DNA of 64,000 bases from Dictyostelium discoideum (taxonomy: Eukaryota): the NCBI GenBank assembly GCA_000004695.1, contig CM000153.2:5344001-5408000 (forward strand). Direction: 5' to 3'. How positions within the stretch are numbered: position 1 is the first letter of the stretch; every line of letters begins with the position of its first letter. Shown here piece by piece: positions 6,249 to 29,500 of this stretch. Position numbers and translations under genes: made by a program. Under the pieces are notes generated by a model that saw nothing but the letters and a program-made list of their open reading frames with translations, searched no databases and was not told where the DNA came from.

Positions 6249-8299
6249 AATAGATCCAACTTGGATTAGTGTTGAATATCCAGAAGATTTTGATTCAACA
6301 ATAAATTATATTAGATTATATGATAATTATTCAAATTTAGTTGCAGATAATTTTTATACAGCAAATATAATAATTTATGATTCAAGAGTTAATGAAAATA
6401 TAAGTTTAACAACATTTATTAGAGGTGGTAGTGGTGATTTTAATTATTCATTTAATGTATTTTCAATTTATGATTTTCAAATTTCAATTAATATTATTGC
6501 AGATGGATTTAATATTAATTATCTTAAATATAAAAGTCCACCAAAATGTTTAAATTTTCAAACTAGTACATTATCTGATGGTTGTATATTTTGTCCAATT
6601 AATCAAGCTGCAACACCTGAAAAAGGTGAATGTACAAAATGTGATACAAATAAATTGGTTTGTTTAAATAATGATGTTCATACATTACAAGATTATTTTA
6701 TGATTAATAATGATGTTTCAAAAGTTTATCAATGTCCATTTGGTTTATGTTCTGGTCAAAATAATTGTAATAGTAATTTATTTTTATTATCAAGTTTACA
6801 AAGTCCATTATGTTCAAGGTGTTTAAATGATTATAATAATGAAAATGATGATGAAAATCAATTTAAATATAATAATAATGAAAATAGTGGTAGTAGTGGT
6901 AATAGTAATAATAATGAAAATAGTAATAGTAATAGTGATAGTAATAGTAATAGTAATAGTAATAGTAATAGTAATAGTAATAGTAATAGTAATAGTAATA
7001 GTAATAGTAATAGTAATAGTAATAGTAATAGTAATGAAAATAATTATAATGGTGGTGATGATGATGATGATGAAAAAAATATTAATAATTATAAACCATC
7101 AAAATCAAAGAATGGATTATATTGTTGTAATAAATTTCAACCATTATTATTAATACCATTTATTTTTTGGATTTTATTTTTTGGATTATTTTTATCATTA
7201 TTTAAAAATGTTATAACTGGTACAATGATTGGTCAAATTATATTATTTTTACAATTAAATTCAATTGTATTTTATCCATTACCAAATATTTATGGTTTAC
7301 AATTATTTAGAATGTCAATTGATTATTTTGATCGATATTGTTTATTTAAATTAGATTATATTGAAAAGATTTCAATTTCATTAATCTCAATATTTTTAAT
7401 TTATTTAATTGGTATTTCAGATGTAACATCAAGATTAATTTTATCAATTTTAAAAAGATCTTTAAAATTAAAGAAACTGATTCCATTGGTAATTGAAAAA
7501 CAACTTCGAAAATTTGAATATTATAAAATGAATAGAATTAATACAAGATTAAAATCAAATTGGAATATTTATTTAATGTTAATTCAACCATTATTTCATT
7601 GTTTAATATCATTAATTGTACCAAAATCAATTGGTTCAACAACTTATTTATCAATTGATTTAACAATACTATTCATTTCAACACCAATTCAAATTGTTTT
7701 CTTTTTTTCAAGTATTGTAATTTTATTTTTATTAGGTATAATCATTCCATTGATTATATTTGTNNNNNNNNNNNNNNNNNNNNNNNNNNNNNNNNNNNNN
7801 NNNNNNNNNNNNNNNNNNNNNNNNNNNNNNNNNNNNNNNNNNNNNNNNNNNNNNNNNNNNNNNAAATCATTATAGAAAAGAATTTAGATGGTGGGATTTA
7901 ATATTTGTTTTTAAAACTATACTATTCACTTCACTATCTGTAACTTTATTGTATAATCCACCCGTTTATTTTTCAGCTTTAGTAATTTGTCAAATTGTTT
8001 ACTCTTATTCACAATTTGCATTCTCACCACAAAGAAAAGATCATATGTATAGAGTTGAAAATTTATTAAATCTATTTCAACTTTCAATATTAATCGTAAT
8101 TAATACTTCAATAATTAGAAATTTATCTTTTAATTTAATTGGTATTTTATTTACTATTGTAATTTTCTCTTGTTCTTTAATAACAATAATTTATAAATTA
8201 TTCTTTTATAAAAAATTAAAAACTATTAAAAATCATAGACTTTTAAATTTAATTATAAATGTTGATGATAATAAAAAAAAAACAAATAAAAATAAATAA
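2878..8299 (+). CDS. Tandem paralog of the upstream gene: Pmp-repeat (GGAI / FxxN) beta-helix ectodomain, Cys-rich module and multi-pass TM domain. Predicted exons 2878-6127 and 6254-8299, interrupted by two 100-N gaps; the true start codon is uncertain because of the gap at 2955-3054.
   Basis: An 1100-aa ORF carries Pmp-repeat motifs (IGAAIFTNGT, MGGCFFLSNS, NNSFLNNTA, SNKFLNNNA). A GTAAGT donor lies at 6128 and a poly-A…TAG acceptor at 6252-6253, with an in-frame junction. The downstream frame (PTWISVEYPEDF…CPFGLCSGQNNC…CSRCLNDY…LYCCNKFQPLLLIPFIFWILFFGLF) is colinear with the C-terminal half of gene 1-2451. The ORF after the second gap runs to a stop at 8297-8299. Confidence 0.55.
2955..3054. 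other. Assembly gap (100 N)
   Basis: Run of exactly 100 N characters. Confidence 0.99.
6935..7038 (+). repeat. (AGTAAT)n hexanucleotide microsatellite encoding an (SN)n tract within the CDS
   Basis: Perfect agtaat repeats, translated in frame as SNSNSN…. Confidence 0.9.
7764..7863. other. Assembly gap (100 N) inside gene
   Basis: Run of exactly 100 N characters. Confidence 0.99.
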
Positions 8300-8634
8300 A
8301 TAAATAAAAAAAAAAAAAACAATTATTTAAAAACAAATAAAATAAAATAAAATAAAATAAATATTTAAATAATAAAAAAAAAAAATTTATTTAAACTTTA
8401 TAATTAATTTTTAAAAAATAAACTATTAATAATGACAATGATTGTCACTCCATTGGCAATTTGATAAAACACAACTTAATTTACCTTTAATTGATTCACA
8501 AAACTCTTTAAAAGAAAAAAAAAAAAAAAAGTTAATAAAAGTTTTATATTAGTATTTAATTATTATAAAAAAAAAGGAAAAATAATTCTTTTAAAATTCT
8601 TACTCTTTAAACTTTCTTGTTCACCTTCAACTTT

Positions 8635-8822
8635 ATTACATGATTCATTTTCCCATTGACAACCATATTGTGAACTTTCATTACAAATTGATTCGGAAAG
8701 ATAAGAACAAACACTATTACCTTGGTATTCTTCAGTTACTTCAACTGCATTTTCAATTGCATCAAGAGCTGATTCTCTTCTAATTGTAACACAAGCAAAT
8801 TTATTATGACCTAAAGCTTTCC

Positions 8823-8859
<37 letters not shown>

Positions 8860-9073
8860 TTTTTAAATAATAAATAAAAAAGAAAAATTAGTATTGATGA
8901 TGATGGTGGTGATGACAAAGATAGAATGAAGATTTAATAGAATTAAATATTTACAAGCATGGTGGAGAATTTAATGCACAATAAAATGCATTTCTATTTG
9001 ATGAACAGCTTGCAGCATTTGTAATACCAACAAATAATAATACAGCAACTAATAAAGATACAATGAATTTCAT
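8635..9073 (-). CDS. Small secreted Cys-rich protein (~102 aa): signal peptide MKFIVSLLVAVLLFVGITNA, then CSY…SICNESSQYGCQWENES. Exons 9073-8955 and 8824-8635.
   Basis: The ATG on the minus strand lies at 9073-9071, followed by a hydrophobic signal peptide. A GTAAAT donor lies at 8954 and the acceptor AG at 8826-8825 after a poly-A tract, restoring the frame. The Cys spacing resembles a PSI-like CxxC…C-W motif. The stop codon TAA read at 8637-8635 sits at a line junction in my reading; see findings for a possible third exon. Confidence 0.4.
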
Positions 9074-9823
9074 TTTTTATGAATAACTTTGATTTAATAA
9101 TTCTACAATAAAAAAAAAAAAAAAAAAAAAACAGCAAAGAAAACAAAAAAAAAAAAAAGTAAAAAAAAAATAAAAAAAATAAAATTTTGGTTTTATCCCA
9201 CCAGGCTATGAGATATTTTTTGAAACCCACAAAAAAAAATTTTTAAAAATTGATCAATTTTTTTTCGGCTTCAAATAATTTTATTTTAAAAATAAAAATT
9301 TCGTGGTATTCAAAATTGAATTGAAATTTGATTATTTAAAAATTTTATGTAATGCTTAATCTTTTATTTTATTTTTATTTTCTTAATCTTTTATTTTATT
9401 TTTATTTTCTTTTATTTTTTTTTTTTCTTTTTTTTTATTTTTTTTTTAATTATTATTTTTTTCTTTTAAAACCTTTATCAACGAGCAAAATTGTCAATTC
9501 TAAATTAAATAATAATAATAAAAATGACAGAAGCAACAATGATTGCACTTAAACAAATAATGCAAATTTAAAATTAAAAAAAAAAAAAAATTTAGTTTTA
9601 AAAAAATAATGGTAATAATTTAGTAAAAACAACAATTAATTTTTCAAATCTTTGTTTTATTGTTTCTTATTGAGTAACATTTAATGATGATTGTGGTTTA
9701 TAATTTACAAAAAGTTTTTTTTTTTCTTTATTTTAATCTTATCATTATTTTTGAAATAAAAGTTTTATTATATTATATAATTGTTGTTTTTACTAAATTT
9801 TCTTTTTATATATAAATATTTGT

Positions 9824-10760
9824 TTATTTCTTTTCATCTTTTGAATTATCTTTATCTCTAAACTCTGGTTTTAATTCATATAAATGATGGTAAGGTCCTC
9901 TTTTGTTTAAGATACAAACTTTCTCTAAAATTGTCTTTAAATGATTCTTTGGTTGTTCTGTAAATGATTCCAATGTTTTAAGATCTAAATGTTTCTCTGC
10001 TCTAAATGCACTGAAGATAAGATCAAGAACTTCATCTTCTGGTAATTTTTCTTTTTTGTCTGTAGATTTCTTTTTCTTTATAGTTTTGATATAAAATGAG
10101 AATTAATAAAAATTTTTATTTATTTTTTTTAAAAAAAATAAAAAATAAAAAATAAAAAATAAAAATAAATAAATAAATAATACTTACTTGAGTAATACCA
10201 ACAGTACTAACTTTAACTTTATTTGCATCGAAAAGTGTTGGAGTGAATAGTTCGGATTCATCAATGACTTGAGTCATTCTAGTTTTAGTATTATATTTAG
10301 TATGTCTTGATTTCATTAGATCTCTATATTGTGGTGATTCAACATCAATCTTTATATCACATCTTAACCCTATATTACCTTCCAATGCTAATGCACCATC
10401 TTTATCCTCTGAAAATATTTTTAATGGTTGATTATCTAATGTATTTGCTGTTGTAATTAATTGAAATTCTTGTCCAACATCTGGTCCATATGATAATGAT
10501 ATCTATATAAAATAAATAAATAAATAATTAAATAAATAAAACTTTTATATATTTATATCTATACTATATATATATAAAGAAATAAAGAAATAAATTCTTA
10601 CATTGTCACCACCTTTTATATGAATTTGACCAATTTCACCTTGACCAATCTTTTGCCAACTTTCTGATAAAAACTTTGGTACTTTAATTAACCAAACTTG
10701 ATTATCTGCATTATCTGTATTAACTTCACCTACTAAAGCATCATTCTTTTCTTCGCTCAT
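9824..10760 (-). CDS. gtf2f2: General transcription factor IIF subunit 2 (TFIIF beta / RAP30). Three exons: 10760-10602, 10502-10188, 10075-9824; ~241 aa.
   Basis: The N-terminus NQVWLIKVPKFLSESWQKIGQGEIGQIHI matches RAP30 GVWLVKVPKYLSQQWAKASGRGEVGKLRI. The C-terminal winged helix LDLIFSAFRAEKHLDLKTLESFTEQPKNHLKTILEKVCILNKRGPYHHLYELKPEFR matches RAP30 LDMLFSAFEKHQYYNLKDLVDITKQP…KNTWELKPEYR. The two introns have GTAAGA and GTAAGT donors and poly-AT…AG acceptors, and the exon lengths (159, 315, 252 nt) keep the frame. Confidence 0.85.
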
Positions 10761-17591: not shown

Positions 17592-18514
17592 TGATTTTGA
17601 AATAAGTAAAGACATTAAACTTGAAAAAGAATCACTCTTATTATTTAATAATTCAATTGCATAATTATAAGATTCATCTTTTGAAACACCAAATGCTTTT
17701 GAAACTTCTGTCGAACCTGTTTTTATAATGGTTGAATAAAGTGGAAAATCATTTTTTGGTGGGATTGTTCTTTTTTAAAAAAAATAAAAAAAAAAAAAAA
17801 AAATTATAATAATAATAATATTAATATTGTTTTTTTTTTTTTTTTTTTTTTTTCTCATGTATATTTTTAAAAATTTAATAATTACTTTATAATTGGTGGT
17901 TCTAATTTAAAATTTGAAAAATTTTTAATTAAAATTGATTCAGGTTTATTTAATATAAAAGATTCTAAAGATTGTTGGGGTTGTCTTAAGATTTGAGTAT
18001 GAATGAAATTACGAACAGTTTTAAAATCAGTTTCTAAATAAAGTGCACCAATGAATTTAATTAAACAACGATATGAATAATGACTAAAATAAATTGATTT
18101 ATAAAATGAATTTGAATTAATTTGAAAACGAATAAATTCTGATAAACCAATATCTTTACAACGTTCTCTTAAAAAGTAAGAACTTTTAATTGATTCTCTA
18201 AACTCTTCAAATATTGATTGATCATTAAATGAAAATTCTGAATCTGAAATTGAATGTCTATAACATAATTCTCCAAAAAATCTTAATTTATTTTGTTCTG
18301 CTTCATTTTGTAAACTTGGACAATGTGTTAAACTATCAATTATAATTTTTGGAATTTCAAAGTCATCATTGCCATTTTTTGAAAATTTAATATTTAAATC
18401 TTTTAATAATTTTAATAAACTTGGTTTAAATTCTGTTTCCATATCTTCATTAACTTTTTTACCATATAATTCAGAGGTGGTGGTGGTTGTTGTTGTTATT
18501 GTTTTATCAATTTG

Positions 18515-20279: not shown

Positions 20280-21261
20280 AATGGTTATTATCAGACAAAA
20301 ATTTTGTACACGTAATGTTTCTATCCGCAAATAAAACTCAGTCCGCTCGTCAAGGGTTCACATCATTAAATAACCAAATAAATCAATACTAATTAAAAAT
20401 TATAAAAAAGAAATTAACATACCAATTAAAATGCAGTTATATAGCAAGACTTTAAAACAAAGAGCTAGTTATTTTTTTATTTGTACAGGTTCTAAATTTT
20501 AAATTAAAAAATAATATTAATAACTGATTTTTTTTTTAAAAAAAAAAAAAAATAGAAAATTATTAAAGGACCAATTGATAAATCAGACGTGTTAAAAAAG
20601 ATGTCCTCATTTTACAATCAGACATATGCTTGTATGAAAATCATCATATCTATCAATTGGTTCGAATAATTGTAATTTAATTCTTACCTTTATTTCATGA
20701 GGGGAAAAAAAAGTTTTTAAAAACTAATTTTTTTTTTTGGAGGCATCTGCATACCAAGAATTAAACTGAACTATTAAACAAGGCAATTTTCTAGAAATAA
20801 ATAATAAAAATAATATGTTAATAATTTAATCTTTTTTTTTTTATAAAAAAAAATGATTTATTTAAATAATTATTTTTTTTGAGATATTTTGTCAGATGTT
20901 ATAGAAGAAGTAATGTTTTTATTTCATCATTCTCTTTAAGATGTCCCTAACAGGTTTTCATCATATAAATAATCCCAAAAATAAATTATTCTTTAAAAAA
21001 AAAAAAATATATTTTAAAACTTACTCTTAACCTTAAGACATTTTATTGGTGCACCACAACAAATTGATTTGAATGAATTTTATTTTTTTTTTTTTTTCTT
21101 TTATAAAAAAAAGTGGAACGAAAAAAAAATTTGAAAAAAAAATTTGAAAAAAAAAAGTAAAAAAAAAGAAAAGTAAAAAAAAATAACGTTAAATTCGAAA
21201 AAAAAAAAAAACGTAGTTCTTAAAAATAAAATTAAGCCAAAATTTCCTCATTTTTTTTGTC

Positions 21262-21300
<39 letters not shown>

Positions 21301-22750
21301 TATTATTAACTTTTACAGAAATATTTCAATAAACACAAATAAAACTCAATCAAATGGTATATAGAAGTAATTTATTTAATTTTTTATTTTTTATTTTTTT
21401 TTTTCTCTTTTAAATTGTTCTATGTAACAAAAGCATCACTTTATCACTTTAAATATTTAAGTAAAATCCATTAAAAATTCTTTTCCTTTTTTTTCTTTTT
21501 AATTTTTTTTTTTTTTTTTTTTTTTTATTAATTATAAATTTTTTAAAATAATAATCTTTTTATAATGTTTTAAAAGTAGATTAAAATAATAATAGTTTCA
21601 AATGATTCAAGTAATTCGACCAATGTAAATAATAATTGAAATAATTCTTGAAATAATAGTAATAAAGGTCCAAATTTTTATTGATTATTTTATTAATTAT
21701 TGTGATTTTGAAATTGAATATCCAAAACCAATAGTTTATACTATTGGAGGGAATTTAACAGTCTAATAACTTTTATATTATATTTCAAATATTACAATAG
21801 AGGTTAATAATCAATTACAAAGTAATAATATTTAATTTATAAATTTAACAACAATAACATGTAATTTACCATCAATTAATGAAACAAGTCAATCATCAAT
21901 AATAAACATCTACTGCCAAAAAACACTATAACCACAATTTTTAGAAAAAAGTTATTATTAAAAATAGCATTTGAAAGTAAATCATGGAGTGGATATATTT
22001 TTCAATATTCTAAAGATGAAATTCTGTATAATAAAAGTTATAATTCAAGTGATAAATCTTTTAATTAATAGCACAAATAATAATAATAATAAACAAAACA
22101 AGGAAAATGGAATTAATATATAAGTACAAAAGCACAATTGTGTTAATTTGTACCTTTGTGCCTTCAAGTATAGCTATAATAGTATATTTGATAAAGATTT
22201 TCTTAATAAGAAAAAGAACAAATAAATTATTACATAAATCTTAAAAAAAGAAATTATTTATCACAAGAACAAAAAAGAAATAGGTCGTGCAAAAGTAAAA
22301 GAAGTTGACGAAAAAGATCCAAGAAACAAAATTTGAAAATAAACGTTTAATGCTTCAATATGCTACCAGGAATGCAAAATATAGAAGCACTGTAGCATGG
22401 ATGGAAAAAGAGTTTGAAAAACAAGAGTTTGAAAAATAAGAGTTTGAAAAACAACAAAATCAATCAAAAAATGATAATATTGAATGTTCAAGTAGTGGCC
22501 AAAGCCAACAACAAGATTTTGAAAATAAAAATGAAACAACGTCTCAATTACCACCATCACAACTACCACCACAGCTACCCTCATCACCACCACCATCACA
22601 ACTACCACTACCACAGCTACCCTCATCACCACCATCACCACAGCCACCATCATCATCACCACCACCTACCTTCATCACCACCATCACCACCATCACCACC
22701 ATCACCACCATCACCACCATCACCACCATCATCATTATCATCACCATAAA
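20280..22750. other. Non-AT-homopolymer, complex non-coding block without an intact ORF. It contains a degenerate repeat-coded ORF with an internal stop. Probably a transposon or rearrangement remnant.
   Basis: Base composition and complexity differ from the flanking intergenic DNA. At 22390-22445 a triplicated 15-mer (gagtttgaaaaacaa / gagtttgaaaaaTaa / gagtttgaaaaacaa) has one unit mutated to a stop. At 22540-22740 the sequence is Pro/Ser/Thr-rich ccaccatca-type repeats. No tRNA or rRNA signatures. Confidence 0.35.
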
Positions 22751-23029
22751 ATAATTCTGAAATTAAAAATAAAATAAAATAAAATAAAAAATAAATTAAA
22801 TAATCCCATTTATTATTTTAATATATATATTTGTTTTATTTTGATTGGTTTGAAATTCTACTTGTTGTATTGTACCATATGACGTTCTACAAATTTGAAT
22901 GTAAATCTATTTTGAAATTCAATTGATTTAAAAGTAACATCTGTATATTGATATAAATTAATTTTAACTTATAAAATTCTACCTGTACCTATGGTTCTAT
23001 TTTGAGCGCTACTGATCTATGGTATGTAA

Positions 23030-23345
23030 ATCCATTTGAAGAATTTCCTTGGCTCTGGTACACCGAGTGGAACGAATTCTAGATCCATTTGATCATAATG
23101 AGTATCAAGAGCTTGCATATATTTGGAGAAAGAAATTAACCAATTGATGGATGGGAAATGTTTACGTTGTGCTAATTTTTTATCTAAACCCCAGAATACT
23201 TGGACGATACCTAAAGTGGCAGCAGTGACTGGATCAGCAAAATCTATATTATAAAAATTAATAAAATTAGTAAAATATTCAAATTTTTTCAAAGTTGCCA
23301 TCTTAAAAATTTTGGCATACCTCCACCAGAGGTTTAACTGCACCG
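23030..23345 (-). pseudogene. Fragment copy of the V-ATPase A subunit gene (vatA), duplicated ~3.5 kb upstream of the intact gene
   Basis: Positions 23037-23263 are about 97% identical to 26731-26937 of vatA. The differences are a 'tacaccgagtgg' versus 'tacggagtgg' indel and a tctAgatcc/tctGgatcc substitution. The fragment encodes [54 protein letters not shown]. Further vatA-like sequence (ctgcaccgacaa…) follows after an ~80-nt AT-rich insertion. No start codon, and both ends are truncated. Confidence 0.7.
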
Positions 23346-24301
23346 ACAACTTTAACGTGAAACAAGTTATAAATTAATTAATTAATATTAAAAAATATTA
23401 ATTGTAAATGCAACTTGCATTTACAAATAAATAATTTTTTTTTTTTTCTTTTTTTTTTTTTTCCTTTTTATTCTTTTTGTAAGTTTAATTATAAAAAATA
23501 AAAAAATAGAAATACCTTAAAATTTTATTTTTATTTTATTTTATTTTTTTATTTTATTTTATTTATTAATTTTTTTTTAAAACTAAAATATGGAAAAAGA
23601 AAAAAAAAATAATTTCAATATAAAAATAAACCCTCAATTGAATTTTAAAAAAATAAACCCTCAATTAAATCTTAATAAAATGGTAAAGGGTTATTTTTTT
23701 TTTTAAGGTGTTTTTGACTATTCAAGAATTTTACCACATTATTCAAAAAAAGAAATTAAGTTATGACATAGTTATTTAAATTGATATATCATTCATTCAA
23801 ATGAGAAGAAAAGATGGTAATACCTAAAATCAAGGAAAAGAATCGAGATTGGATATCTAACAGGTAATAAACATATTCAAACATATCGATTACTTGCAAA
23901 AATTTTTTAAAAAAAAAAAAAAAAAAAGATGATGATTAAATAAATAATAATGGTTAATCATAATAAGACATTCCTATTTTTTTAATTTTTAATTTTTTAT
24001 TTTTTTTTTATTTATTTTTTTTTGTTTAAAGATTAAAATTTTTTAAATAAGGAAGTTACACTTTTTATACTAAAAATAATAAATCCAAAAATTAATCTAA
24101 AATTCTTTTTTTTATTTTTTTTTTTTTTTTCTAAAATTTTTTTCACCAAATTTCTTGGAAGTGTTTTCAAAAATCTGTATTTGGAATTTTTTTTTTTTTT
24201 TTTTATTTTTTTTTTTTTTTTTATTTTTTTTATTTTTTTTTTTAATTTAATATATTTTTTTTTATTATTTTTATTTTTTTTTTAGTTTTAATATGATTAT
24301 T

Positions 24302-24430
24302 TATAGAAATGATGGCCGTTTTAAATATTTACCAGGCCGCTGAAATTATGAATGCTACATTGGTTATATAATATCAAATAATTTGGAATAAAAAGTTAAT
24401 TAAAGAAACAATGCAATTACAATTTGAATA
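24302..24430 (+). repeat. Degenerate tandem duplicate of the 5' end of the ORF at 24602
   Basis: atgatggccgttttaaatatttaccaggccgctgaaattatgaatgctacattgg… parallels atgatggcagtttccaacatatactatgcagaaattatgaatgcatgcataggttc… at 24602, including a shared …taattaaagaaacaatgcaattacaa(t)ttgaatat block. The copy is closed by early stop codons. Confidence 0.6.
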
Positions 24431-24601
24431 TTGTGAAAAAGTGTCAAGAAGACTTTCAATTAAATGGTTTAGAAAATTTTTTTATAAATTACATTTGCAC
24501 CAAAGGTGATGATTCAATTATATCGGGCAAACTGTTCCAACTTTTGATCTTAGACTTAAAGGCATGAAAATCCTACAACTGGTTGTTTAAAGGTTAGAGC
24601 T

Positions 24602-25403
24602 ATGATGGCAGTTTCCAACATATACTATGCAGAAATTATGAATGCATGCATAGGTTCTTTGATGGCAAATAGTTTAGAATCAGATTTAATTAAAGAAACC
24701 AATGCAATTACAAATTTGAATATGTCATCAGGTCCAATTAATACTTTGGCTGTAAAATCGAATTTATTTAGAAAGTATCACAGCAAATCCTATAAAACTC
24801 AAACTGTTAAATATGGTGATCTCTTTTGGTCCAAAAATGATGATGAAACAATTAAAGGATTTGAGAAAGTTTTGGAAACTGAAAGTTTATTAATTGGTCC
24901 ACATTTAATTATGCATAGTGAATATTATAAATTTCGTGAAAAAAATAACGATCCAATTAAATTTGTTCAAAATCCAACTATTTAATATAAAAACACATGT
25001 AAGAATGATATTTTTTCAAGATAGAGCAGTAATACCACTTCAAAACAAAACAAATCCATCATACAAAAAAACTAATTCAAGGAATATCGGTGAAGATTTA
25101 CCAAAATCCTTTACATTTGAAATTGATAAAAATTTAAAAATAGGAGCAATGGCCTATATGTACAAACATCTTATAGATTCACTTGGAAATGATGTCGAAA
25201 TTATTAAAAAGTACCTCCAACCCTATTATAAAACAAAAATTGAAACCAAAGAGGAATTTAAATCTTATGTAGGCAAACTTATAATGATGGTAATACAAAA
25301 AGAACATGGAAACTGTATTATAGGAGAAGATACAGACTTAAAAATAAAGGGATTGGTTAATGAATATCTTTTGAAAAAAGGTATTTTACAAAAAAAAAAT
25401 TAA
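24602..25403 (+). CDS. Hypothetical protein encoded in two overlapping frames (24602-24985 and ~25020-25403); either a frameshifted or atypically spliced gene, or a pseudogene
   Basis: Both ORFs have normal-complexity, protein-like translations (…YGDLFWSKNDDETIKGFEKVLETESLLIGPHLIMHSEYYKFREK… and …IGAMAYMYKHLIDSLGNDVEIIKKYLQPYYKTKIETKEEFKSYVGKLIMMVIQKEHGNCIIGEDTDLKIKGLVNEYLLKKGILQ). The frame changes by +1 around 24985-25020, where only a ~22-nt GTAAGA…CAAG pseudo-intron exists. Confidence 0.3.
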
Positions 25404-26323
25404 AGTTGAAAAAGTGGTTGGTTAAGCAAAATCTTTAAAACTTTACAATCATTATTTATTCTAACTAATAATCTAAAATAAAAAAATAAAAAAAACACTT
25501 TTAAATAGTACATTCCTTCTTTTTTATTTAATATTTATTCAAAGATTAGTAATGACAGACGAATTAACCGAGTCGAAAATATTTAAATTGAATCTATTAA
25601 TTTTTTTTAATAACTATTATATTAATTTTTTTTTTTTTTTTTTCTAATTTATTATTTTTTTTTTTAATCAATATATATCTAAATTATTATTAAAATTATT
25701 TATATATTTATTTTTTTTTTTTTCTTTATTTATATTTACCTTATTTACTTTACTATTTATATACTCTTATATTTATATATTTTATTTATTTCTTTATTAT
25801 ATTAAAATAATTTTTTTTTTAGGACAGTCATTCGTAGTGATAAACACTAACAAGACGGGATATTCACTAATTTTTATTATGTTTATCAAACAAGAATATG
25901 AATTGAATTTTTTTTTTTTTAATTAAATAACCTACCAAAGAAAATGCTAACTAAAAAGTATGGATAAATTAAATATATATATTCTTTATTGATATTTCGA
26001 AGATATCAAACACTATATAAATTATATTTAAAAGCTAAAATGCAAAATCACGTTTACAAACAATTCGTTGTAAATTAAAAAGAGGTATCAATCAAGCTGC
26101 TCCTCTTAATAAATGAGTACACCACCATAATCTCCTCTATCATGCTAAATAATAAAAATAAAAATAATAATAAAAAATACAGCAAACACAACCTGAGAGG
26201 AATCTTTAAAAAAAAAAAAAAAAAATGATGCAAAGTATAATTATTGTTTTGGTTTAGATTACTTTTTTTATTTTTTTATTTACTATTATATATTTATATT
26301 ATTTTTTATTAATATCATTTATT

Positions 26324-28643
26324 TTAAACTAAATCACTAAAGTTTCTGAAAGCAGTAATGATATCTTCATTGAGAGTTGAGAAATGAGCAGTTAAAGTTT
26401 GTTCACCGTCAGTTGGATCTTGGAATTTCATTGAAGTAATTCTGTGAATGATTTCTTTTAATTCATTTTTAATTTGATTCCAAGTAACTTTATTATCAGC
26501 GGTACTTGATTCAACAGCTTTTTGTGCTAAATTGTAGAAAGTCATCATATTCTTTAACATCCAAACGGTCTTGAAGAATGGACAACATTTATCGTATGGA
26601 GAGAAACCATTTTGTTGAAGGAAATCATCACGAATAATACGAGCGACTTCAATGGTAATCTTTTCAGATTCACCTAAAGAATCTTGACCGACCAATTGGA
26701 CGATTTCAGAGAGATCTTCTTCCATTTGAAGAATTTCCTTGGCTCTGGTACGGAGTGGAACGAATTCTGGATCCATTTGATCATAATGAGTATCAAGAGC
26801 TTGCATATATTTGGAGAAAGAAATTAACCAATTGATGGATGGGAAATGTTTACGTTGTGCTAATTTTTTATCTAAACCCCAGAATACTTGGACGATACCT
26901 AAAGTGGCAGCAGTGACTGGATCAGCAAAATCTCCACCTGGGGGAGAGACTGCACCGACAATTGTAACTGAACCAATACGAGTTGGATGACCAATACATG
27001 ATACACGACCAGCTCTTTCATAGAAAGATGCAAGACGAGCACCCAAGTAAGCTGGATAACCAGAATCTGCTGGCATTTCAGCTAAACGACCAGAAATTTC
27101 ACGAAGAGCTTCAGCCCAACGAGAGGTAGAATCAGCCATCATAGCAACATTTAAACCCATATCACGGAAATATTCTGCCAATGTAATACCAGTGTAGATA
27201 GAAGCTTCACGAGCAGCTACTGGCATATTTGAAGTGTTGGCAACTAAACAAGTACGTTGCATAATTGGTTCTTCTTTATCACCGACTTTAGTATGGAGTT
27301 CTGGGAATTCCATAAGTACTTCAGCCATTTCATTACCACGTTCACCACAACCTACGTAAACAATTGCATCAGAGTTGGAGAATTTAGAGAGAGATTGAGA
27401 AATTACAGTCTTACCACAACCAAAAGCACCTGGAATAGCACATGTACCACCTTGTACGCATGGGAAAAGTGAATCAAGTACACGTTGACCAGTTAATAAT
27501 GGATAATTACATGGAAGTTTTTCAATGACTGGACGTGCACTACGTACTGGCCAATTGTGAACCATAGTTAATTGTTTACGTTTACCATCGAATTCAATGG
27601 TTAAAAGTGCATGATCCAAAGTGTATTCACCAGCTGGTGCAATCTCTACGATGGTACCCATTTCCTTTGGTGGAACCATAATCTTATGGATGATTAAATT
27701 ATTTTCAACAACTTGACCAAAAATATCACCACCACTAACATTGTCACCAACTTTTAATTTGGTATCTGGTTGATATGGCCATTTAATAGTTCTATTTAAT
27801 GATGGAGTATTAATACCTCTTGGAATATAAATACCTTTTGTAATCTCTGCAATTGCATTTAATGGACGTTGAATACCATCAAAAATATTATTCATAATAC
27901 CTGGACCTAATTCAACTGTTAATGGTTTATGAGTTCTTAATACTGGATCACCAACAGTTAAACCAGCTTATTAAATAAAAAATTAAAAAATATATATATT
28001 AATATTATTTTATTATTAATATAAATATATATATTATATATTTTATTTTTTTTAATTGTACTTACAAGTTTCTTCGTAAACTTGAATTGTGGCAGTATCT
28101 TCTTCTAATCTAATAATTTCACCAACTAATTGATTGTGACCTACACGAACCAACTCGTACATAGCAGCACCAGCTAATTGATTAGCAATTACGACTGGAC
28201 CTGATACTGATAATACAAAACCTTGTGAATTATCAGCTTCAGTTGAAGCGAATGATGGTAAACCTGAATTTTTTGACTAAATATTATTATTTTTTGGAAA
28301 AAAAAATTATGATTAATATTAAATTATTATTATTATTATTATTAATCTAAACAAACAAAATAAATAATTATTTGGTGTGTGTGTATATATATATTATTGT
28401 GAGTGAATGAATGATCGTAAATTGTGTGAAGTATGTTTTTATTTTTAATTTATGATTTAGCATGCAATGAAAATATAATCAATCATTTGGTTTAAAAAAA
28501 AATTTTAATCATTTGATCTTTATAAATATATTGATATATCATCATTTAATAAAAAAAATTATATTATTTTATTGTTATTTTTAATTTTTCCTTTAAAAGG
28601 AAATTAAATAAAAATATATTTTTTTTTGGTTGGTTCTTACCAT
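26324..28643 (-). CDS. vatA: V-type proton ATPase catalytic subunit A. Predicted exons 28643-28641 (ATG only), 28276-28066 and 27966-26324; 618 codons.
   Basis: The 523-aa ORF has a Walker A motif (GAFGCGKT) and shares its whole length with V-ATPase A ([15 protein letters not shown]…). The upstream exon encodes [70 protein letters not shown], with a GTAAGT donor at 28065 and an …AAG acceptor at 27968-27967 (phase 1, giving …[12 protein letters not shown]). Exon 2 opens directly after TTTAG at 28278-28277 with an in-frame TAG before it. The nearest ATG immediately followed by GTAAGA is at 28643-28641, and the total then equals 1857 nt. That first exon is an inference. Confidence 0.85.
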
Positions 28644-29500
28644 TTTGTATGTTTTATGTTACAAAAAGTTTTATTAAAAATAAAAAAAAAAAAAATAAAA
28701 AAAAAAATAAAATAAAAAAAACTTTGTGAATAAAAAAAAAATTAGATTTTCTGTAAAAAAAAAAAAAAAAAAATTACAAAGAAAAAAAAAAAAAATTTAA
28801 AAAAAAAAAAAAAAATTCTAAACCCTGGTTGGGGAAATAACGAATGAAAAAAAAAAAAAAAAAAAATGGTTTGAGCCTGTAATTGTTGACAAGTTTTATG
28901 ATCGATTTGGAAACTAAACAATTAAACATTTAATTATCTAATTTCCTCTTTTTTTTTTTTTCTTTTTTTTTTTTTTTGGTGAAATTTTGTTTAGAAAAAT
29001 AAAAATATCCTTTTTGTGTGGGCAATAGATTATTTTGAATTGTTTATTTATATTTTTATTTTTTTTATTTTCATTTTTATTTTTATTTTTTTTTTTTTTT
29101 TTGTGGAAATGAAAAAAAAGGTAATAAAAATAAAAATTTTGTGTGTATATATGATATTAAGTTTTAGTTTTTTTAACATACCATTATTTTTTATAGTTTT
29201 TTTTTTTTTTCTTTAAAAAAAATATATATAAATAATAAATAAATAATAATTAAATAATGGGAAAAAAAAAAAAAAACTTTGTTTCTTTTATAACAATGAA
29301 TTTAAAACAATTTTAATTTATGCTTTTTTTTTTTTTTTTTTTAATTTAAAAAAAAAATTTTAAAAAAAAATTTGGAAAATTTTTCCAGCCCGGTTTAATT
29401 TTCCCCCGGGGTTTTTTTTTTTAAATTTAAAATTTTTAAAATTTTTTTTTTTTTTTGAGCGTTTATTTTAAACAGAAAAAATGGTGATTTGACTCTGTTT

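Follow-up and report, generated by a model that had tools for sequence, protein, structure and literature searches.

Unprocessed pseudogenes that exchange sequence with their parent genes by conversion are known from human, where CYP21A1P/CYP21A2, GBAP1/GBA1 and SBDSP1/SBDS are examples of such pairs. Introns whose presence is polymorphic within a species or a species complex are known from Daphnia, Drosophila and some fungi. For Dictyostelium, it has been reported that intron losses far exceed gains and that adjacent introns tend to go jointly (Ma et al. 2015, PMC4683709); the same paper sets the simultaneous disappearance of neighbouring introns and the 3' bias in D. discoideum beside the RT (cDNA recombination) model. 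Local partial gene copies in Dictyostelium genomes are represented by the tgrB/C fragments (Holland et al. 2025, PMC12745789). That study presented de novo assemblies, from Nanopore and Illumina reads, of AX2-214 and of wild isolates, namely two wild D. discoideum (CR116C, OT3A) and two possible cryptic sister species (M4B, S6B).

Here we describe a fragment of vatA near the intact gene in the D. discoideum AX4 reference. Both lie in the window, by which we mean the whole stretch of 64,000 nucleotides that was analysed (G+C content ∼20%). Like the human pseudogenes CYP21A1P, GBAP1 and SBDSP1, the fragment is a nearby, same-strand copy made at the DNA level, with introns kept and frameshifts present, and its match to the parent is uneven along the sequence, copies within one genome being more alike than orthologues. 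Unlike them, it is only an internal piece of ∼0.4 kb (originally ∼0.76 kb) instead of a whole gene, its host is haploid, and it has no documented harmful pseudogene-to-gene transfer. It resembles the tgrB/C fragments in being short, partial, close to its parent and variable between isolates, but the vatA locus is no known hypervariable region and vatA is a single-copy housekeeping gene. As in Daphnia, Drosophila and fungi, an intron polymorphism is involved: a pair of vatA introns varies among isolates that are interfertile or very closely related. In vatA, however, the variable unit comprises two introns together with a 30-nt micro-exon, and a linked pseudogene records the intron-bearing state in a strain that is itself intron-less. 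The fragment is homologous to vatA, contains vatA introns, lies in synteny with copies in related genomes, shows a mosaic pattern of relationships and bears disabling lesions. We consider it very probable that it is an unprocessed, DNA-level partial duplicate of vatA, a pseudogene fragment descended from one old duplication, reshaped by gene conversion and devoid of V-ATPase function.

The intact vatA gene of AX4 (Table 1) has two introns, of 364 and 99 nt, and the protein of the rebuilt model is 100% identical to P54647/XP_637351.1 ('vacuolar H+-ATPase A subunit'). There are no introns at positions 1219/1220 or 1249/1250 of its coding sequence (CDS). The vatA CDS of a lab-lineage assembly (L002, GCA_054883475.1) is 100% identical to that of the window and likewise lacks introns at both sites. 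Two extra GT..AG introns, introns 3 and 4, bracket a 30-nt micro-exon in the vatA genes of L001 (Dictyostelium cf. discoideum, GCA_054859235.1), L003, L004 and L007. The spliced model of each of these four alleles is an uninterrupted 618-aa VatA with an identical peptide across the junctions; the functional gene of L001, for instance, has five exons, with introns of 305 and 86 nt around a micro-exon that codes for (I)VGAVSPPGG(D). The pair is present in four of the five discoideum-clade haplotypes. Both sampled wild D. discoideum genomes have it, AX4 and AX2 do not, and it is absent from vatA of five outgroups (D. firmibasis, D. dimigraforme, D. purpureum, Polysphondylium violaceum and Tieghemostelium lacteum). 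We infer that individual accessions compared here belong to the strains of Holland et al. (2025).

A BLASTN comparison of positions 22500-23900 against 25800-28800 aligned the fragment (23031-23245) with vatA (26721-26933) at 211 of 215 positions (98% identity, E = 1e-106); the differences consist of one 2-bp gap, which is an insertion in the fragment, and two mismatches. This single strong match is the only significant one between the two intervals outside low-complexity sequence, and a self-search of 21500-25000 against the whole window revealed no second copy of the fragment. The longest perfect run measures 164 bp (23082-23245, corresponding to 26770-26933). An earlier reading of the locus from its sequence only (the sequence-only reading) had described ∼225 bp nearly identical to 26731-26937, with an indel and one substitution. 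The near-identity and the indel are real, the coordinates were off by a few bases, and the substitutions number two. The same reading had placed the fragment upstream of vatA; since both are on the minus strand, it lies instead downstream, ∼2.9 kb beyond the stop codon (26324) in the orientation of the gene. The AT-rich insertion and the degenerate vatA-like sequence that it had noted are both present, but neither is what those terms imply: the former, 77 nt long, is a GT..AG intron found in wild vatA, and the latter, of 29 nt and followed by the end of intron 3, is a copy of the micro-exon found in wild vatA.

Table 1. Coordinates of the vatA fragment, its parent gene and neighbouring features (window positions unless another genome is named).
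Feature	Position	Strand	Remarks
Intact vatA, 618 aa	26324..28643	-	Exons 28643-28641, 28276-28066, 27966-26324 (rebuilt model)
vatA stretch matched by the fragment	26721..26933	-	Within vatA exon 3 of AX4; BLASTN
vatA micro-exon (CDS 1220-1249)	26902-26931; L003 9867-9896; L007 10030-10059; L001 7056-7085		Also in L004
Remnant of the 3' end of vatA intron 3, 59 nt	23350..23408	-	Alignable to the final ∼60 nt of intron 3 in L003, L007, L004 and L001
Copy of the 30-nt vatA micro-exon (CDS 1220-1249)	23321..23349	-	29 nt through a 1-nt deletion; 3' half diverged
Copy of vatA intron 4, 77 nt	23244..23320	-	GTATGC...TACTAAT...ATATAG
Copy of vatA exon 5, first 211 nt (CDS 1250-1460)	23031..23243	-	BLASTN/alignment
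DDB_G0287137, 'hypothetical protein', 94 aa	23017..23301	-	XP_637349.1, UniProt Q54KT1; ORF 100% identical
SRI-domain gene	∼24411-25403	+	Between vatA and the fragment; opposite strand to vatA
Direct repeat, ∼95 bp, 82% identity	24339-24431 and 24629-24723		Inside or beside the SRI-domain gene
His-rich/SPP-repeat ORF	22414-22749	+	Convergent with the fragment
Convergent 291-aa gene of L001	L001 10584-11732	-	Stop adjoins the fragment end (10585)

The AX4 fragment can be aligned base for base with the final ∼59 nt of intron 3, then with the micro-exon and intron 4, and after these with the first 211 nt of exon 5. The intron 3 remnant marks the 5' breakpoint of the duplication, and the last 11 nt of this remnant and the 15 nt that open the micro-exon copy match vatA of L003 without a difference (CACGTTAAAG, followed across the boundary by TTGTCGGTGCAGTTA). 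The micro-exon copy resembles vatA codons 407-416, and its 1-nt deletion and 'AACCTCT' motif recur in the fragments of L007 and L001. The copy of intron 4 is alignable to this intron in all four intron-bearing vatA alleles, with 88% identity to that of L001, and the fragment-specific indels within it are common to the AX4, L007 and L001 fragments. In the exon 5 copy, the lesions are the 2-bp insertion near 23060, a substitution beside it and a Pro-to-Leu change near 23080; a deletion cuts this copy off at 23031. Homology to vatA extends into introns on both sides of the micro-exon copy (23244-23320 into intron 4 and 23350-23408 into intron 3), and this intron-bearing content indicates that the fragment was copied at the DNA level from an intron-bearing vatA. 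Its 3' junction, which reads TTTACATACC..., shows no poly(A). We considered and rejected a processed pseudogene (retrocopy), as the fragment keeps intron 4 and part of intron 3.

The sequence-only reading had raised the possibility of a mis-assembly and had pointed to related strains and species as places where the fragment might recur. The fragment and its flanks are 100% identical between AX4 and L002 over 970 bp. Across 12.7 kb of the locus, 25 mismatches and 62 gap positions separate these two genomes, as would be expected of separate assemblies. Orthologous, longer copies are found at the corresponding place in two wild genomes of the discoideum clade, L007 and L001. All of these fragments lie on the strand of vatA and downstream of it, at a distance of 2.9 kb in the window and L002, 2.2 kb in L001 and 7.3 kb in L007. 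The L007 copy runs 375 nt into exon 5 and then passes into a downstream flank of the AX4 type. The AX4 flank (22849-23030) matches the flank of this longer fragment, which indicates that the AX4 copy has lost about 250 bp that L007 keeps. The L001 copy extends to CDS 1831, with an internal deletion of 108 bp. A collapsed or duplicated piece of vatA misplaced in the AX4 reference has next to no probability as an explanation, given the identical sequence in a separate lab-lineage assembly, the orthologues of like structure in L007 and L001, and the flank shared with L007. The fragment moreover holds intron sequence that is missing from AX4 vatA, and is for that reason not a misplaced copy of it.

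In L003 (the sequence of which, as compared, stops before the syntenic point), L004, D. firmibasis, D. dimigraforme and D. purpureum, a search of the 8 kb downstream of vatA did not reveal the fragment, and it is apparently missing at the syntenic site of L004. Its absence from these 8 kb in L003 and L004 suggests that it is not universal in the clade. An exact look-up of the 523-aa vatA ORF and of the fragment ORFs in search of further D. discoideum strains returned the reference only, and literature searches on the gene ID, on a vatA pseudogene and on Dictyostelium intron polymorphism returned nothing about this locus. The surroundings also vary. A block of ∼5.3 kb downstream of vatA (window ∼20970-26323) holds the SRI-domain gene, the fragment and the His-rich/SPP-repeat ORF; D. 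firmibasis and D. dimigraforme have only ∼1 kb in its place, and the block appears to be specific to the discoideum clade.

To describe the relationships between genes and fragments, we classified the informative columns of a quartet formed by the gene and the fragment of L007 and of L001, the two genomes in which an intron-bearing gene and a fragment occur together. In the first zone, which runs from the end of intron 3 into the first part of the micro-exon, 13 columns group the gene with the fragment of the same genome and none group the two fragments. The second zone, made up of the 3' two-thirds of the micro-exon and the first ∼30 nt of intron 4, has no within-genome columns and 15 columns that group fragment with fragment, including deletions of 1, 6 and 3 nt. 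In the third zone, the rest of intron 4 and 400 nt of exon 5, the within-genome grouping returns with 13 columns against none. The succession of 13:0, 0:15 and 13:0 is a pattern of concerted evolution. The AX4 fragment also has the changes of the zone 2 core, and in its exon 5 part, at CDS 1443, it carries the state of AX4 vatA at a position that distinguishes AX4 from L003 and L007. Most simply, these patterns are read as one duplication that preceded the split of the lineages, then independent conversion tracts flanking an unconverted core. A local segmental duplication shaped by gene conversion, as the sequence-only reading had envisaged, agrees both with this mosaic and with the orthologous copies.

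Near-identity of each fragment to the vatA of its own genome, which exon 5 and the end of intron 3 both show, would also result if the same piece of vatA had been duplicated independently and recurrently in each lineage. This scenario is extremely unlikely. All three fragments carry the 1-nt deletion and 'AACCTCT' in the micro-exon and the 6-nt and 3-nt deletions and 'GGCAA' in intron 4, none of which occurs in any vatA allele. Their 5' breakpoint in intron 3 is identical, their position and orientation are alike, and AX4 and L007 have the 3' flank in common. Under a single duplication with later conversion, the 98-100% identity of exon 5 to the resident vatA is explained by the conversion of the outer tracts.

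The history that we propose on these grounds would run as follows. The source would have been an intron-bearing version of vatA, of a structure that persists in wild isolates of the discoideum clade, and it would have been copied once, before D. discoideum split from its cryptic sister lineages. The original copy would have reached to ∼26 nt short of the stop codon, later deletions then shortening it lineage by lineage. Both outer parts would have been overwritten repeatedly from the resident vatA by gene conversion, and the central core, that is the 3' part of the micro-exon and the 5' part of intron 4, would have escaped conversion and retained the fragment-specific changes. Conversion likely proceeded from gene to fragment, because vatA is constrained. 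Some exchange from fragment to gene is possible, and intron 3 of L007 may be compared in this respect: this intron (9690-10029, 340 nt) resembles the L003 intron followed by another 3' block, whose final 58 nt are 100% identical to the flank of the L007 fragment (17868-17925). This hints at gene-fragment exchange inside the intron.

The micro-exon is a hotspot of synonymous change. L003 and L007 differ at 6 of its 30 nt, compared to 6 of the 1827 other CDS positions (Fisher p = 9e-9), with no effect of these differences on the protein; its Ser codon is either TCT/TCA or AGT, depending on the allele. Part of this hotspot may stem from exchange with the fragment, although the fragment is unable to supply all of the variants. 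The micro-exon is omitted from the deposited model of L007 vatA (8001-10750, protein P0126, 608 aa), which is 10 aa short; this is probably an annotation error. Another L007 model, of 392 aa and starting from 17957, overlaps the L007 fragment.

The fragment had been described from its sequence as lacking a start. This holds true in the frame of vatA, but an intron-derived ATG opens an ORF of 94 codons, which is annotated as DDB_G0287137. The ATG lies inside the copy of intron 4 and the end of the ORF is in a shifted frame. In L007 the same ATG is followed by a stop after 7 codons; L001 has no ATG at the AX4 start site, and its model begins at an ATG, missing from AX4 and L007, in the end of intron 3. 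Besides carrying disabling lesions, the fragments share no conserved ORF, with start codons, frameshifts and 3' ends all differing among AX4, L007 and L001. No intact frame colinear with VatA exists, as the 2-bp insertion shifts the frame, the micro-exon has 29 instead of 30 nt and the sequence is cut at 23031. The parts that a functional subunit A requires are also missing: the fragment has no Walker A P-loop (GAFGCGKT), which in VatA lies ∼160 codons upstream of the copied segment, no N-terminal barrel and no complete C-terminal domain. A Pfam search with the fragment ORF matched PF00006 (ATP-synt_ab) at positions 172-213 of 213 only, that is its last 42, and nothing else. With no P-loop, a broken frame and a non-conserved, intron-derived start, the fragment is judged from these sequence features to be a pseudogene that would have no V-ATPase function, and it is presumably not expressed.

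One might instead take DDB_G0287137 for a real small protein-coding gene whose truncated VatA-like product has a function of its own. The ORF is annotated in the AX4 reference and in UniProt, the orthologous fragment of L001 is annotated as a 155-aa model, and the exon 5 frame is open in the fragments of AX4, L007 and L001. Conversion from a constrained parent such as vatA accounts for an open exon 5 frame, however, so that this feature carries no weight either way. The start in AX4 is intron-derived and fails in the two other genomes, the C-termini diverge via different frameshifts and deletions, and the peptide would comprise only the tail of the nucleotide-binding domain without Walker A. 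In addition, the more recent L002 annotation leaves the fragment without a gene model, and we found no paper mentioning DDB_G0287137. Such a gene is very unlikely, and we retain the pseudogene interpretation.

A regulatory role has a slightly better, though still poor, chance. Read-through or the 3' UTR of the convergent plus-strand gene could produce RNA antisense to 213 nt of vatA, and antisense or siRNA action might then tune vatA. The plus-strand ORF ends at 22749, 282 bp short of the fragment, and in L001 the convergent 291-aa gene has its stop codon directly against the fragment end, so that its 3' UTR must run antisense through the fragment; the fragment has also persisted across a species split. 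This case is purely positional, and several observations weigh against it. The fragment is apparently missing at the syntenic site of L004, its length and 3' end are different in every genome, which does not suggest constraint, and its high identity to vatA is explained by gene conversion alone, without selection. Positions 21000-29000 contain no Rfam match, and no tRNA was found in the window.

The intron-less state of AX4 vatA can be viewed as an intron loss or as the retention of an old intron-less allele. The AX4 CDS is continuous at both intron sites and its peptide equals that of the spliced wild alleles. As in RT-mediated loss (PMC4683709), AX4 vatA is precisely without two adjacent, 3'-most introns, with frame and peptide intact, and this precise, adjacent and 3'-biased absence points to a secondary loss in AX4. 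At CDS 490, 492 and 1853, AX4 shares derived sites with L003 and L007, which places it inside D. discoideum. The identity between the L003 vatA and the tract spanning the intron 3 remnant and the start of the micro-exon copy also suggests that an L003-like, intron-bearing allele was recently resident on the AX4 chromosome. On the other side, five outgroups are also without the introns and the AX4 micro-exon is the most outgroup-like, so AX4 may never have had them. The 30 nt of the AX4 micro-exon differ from D. firmibasis at 4 positions, compared to 7-9 for the other alleles, and include TCT where L003, L004 and L001 have AGT. CDS 189 and 1482 have the outgroup state in AX4 alone, which places AX4 outside all intron-bearing alleles. 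The evidence on loss versus retention points both ways.

With respect to the intron pair itself, an origin on the stem of the discoideum clade and an older origin followed by at least four losses both fit. It is conceivable, if doubtful, that introns 3 and 4 and the micro-exon represent a recent gain on this stem that is still segregating, with AX4/AX2 as the surviving intron-less ancestral form and the fragment as an early snapshot that has been trading sequence with the gene. Should this be true, exchange between fragment and gene would help to make the micro-exon a synonymous hotspot, and vatA, an essential housekeeping gene, would provide an intron gain of a rare kind, polymorphic and open to dating, for which the locus keeps its own fossil record. 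BLAST searches with introns 3 and 4 against the window and the compared loci (∼240 kb, a set far too small to rule out a source elsewhere in the genome) gave no support for a transposon or repeat source: the matches were only vatA introns, fragments and a few short AT-rich low-complexity stretches.

Further variation is seen elsewhere in vatA. D. firmibasis has a lineage-private intron at CDS 1610/1611 (L005 10074-10182), and P. violaceum (L009) has private introns near codons 108-112 and 279/280, an intron map that is unusually fluid for a conserved housekeeping gene. In the CDS (window 26324-28276), AX4 is unlike both wild D. discoideum alleles at 18 sites, with C/G in AX4 versus T/A in the wild alleles at 11 of them and the reverse at one. 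Selection on codon usage or GC-biased conversion may underlie this excess.

As a pseudogene, the fragment is of an ordinary kind: partial, unprocessed, subject to concerted evolution with its parent and already listed in the annotation as a hypothetical gene. Its added value lies in a correction of annotation, in a caveat for read mapping and in the polymorphism of the vatA intron pair and micro-exon in the D. discoideum clade. DDB_G0287137 should be treated as a vatA pseudogene fragment and not as a protein-coding gene. The concern that the fragment could confound read mapping, voiced in the sequence-only reading, is well founded, as the perfect match of 164 bp causes short reads to map to both places. 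Since the mRNA with this identity is very highly expressed, the fragment will be assigned short RNA-seq reads that come from vatA, and it can confound the calling of variants in vatA codons ∼417-487. The locus is a compact record of a partial duplication, of tract-limited conversion between a gene and its pseudogene, and of the presence and absence of an intron pair among isolates still able to mate. More wild genomes at the vatA locus could show directly how Dictyostelium introns are lost or gained.
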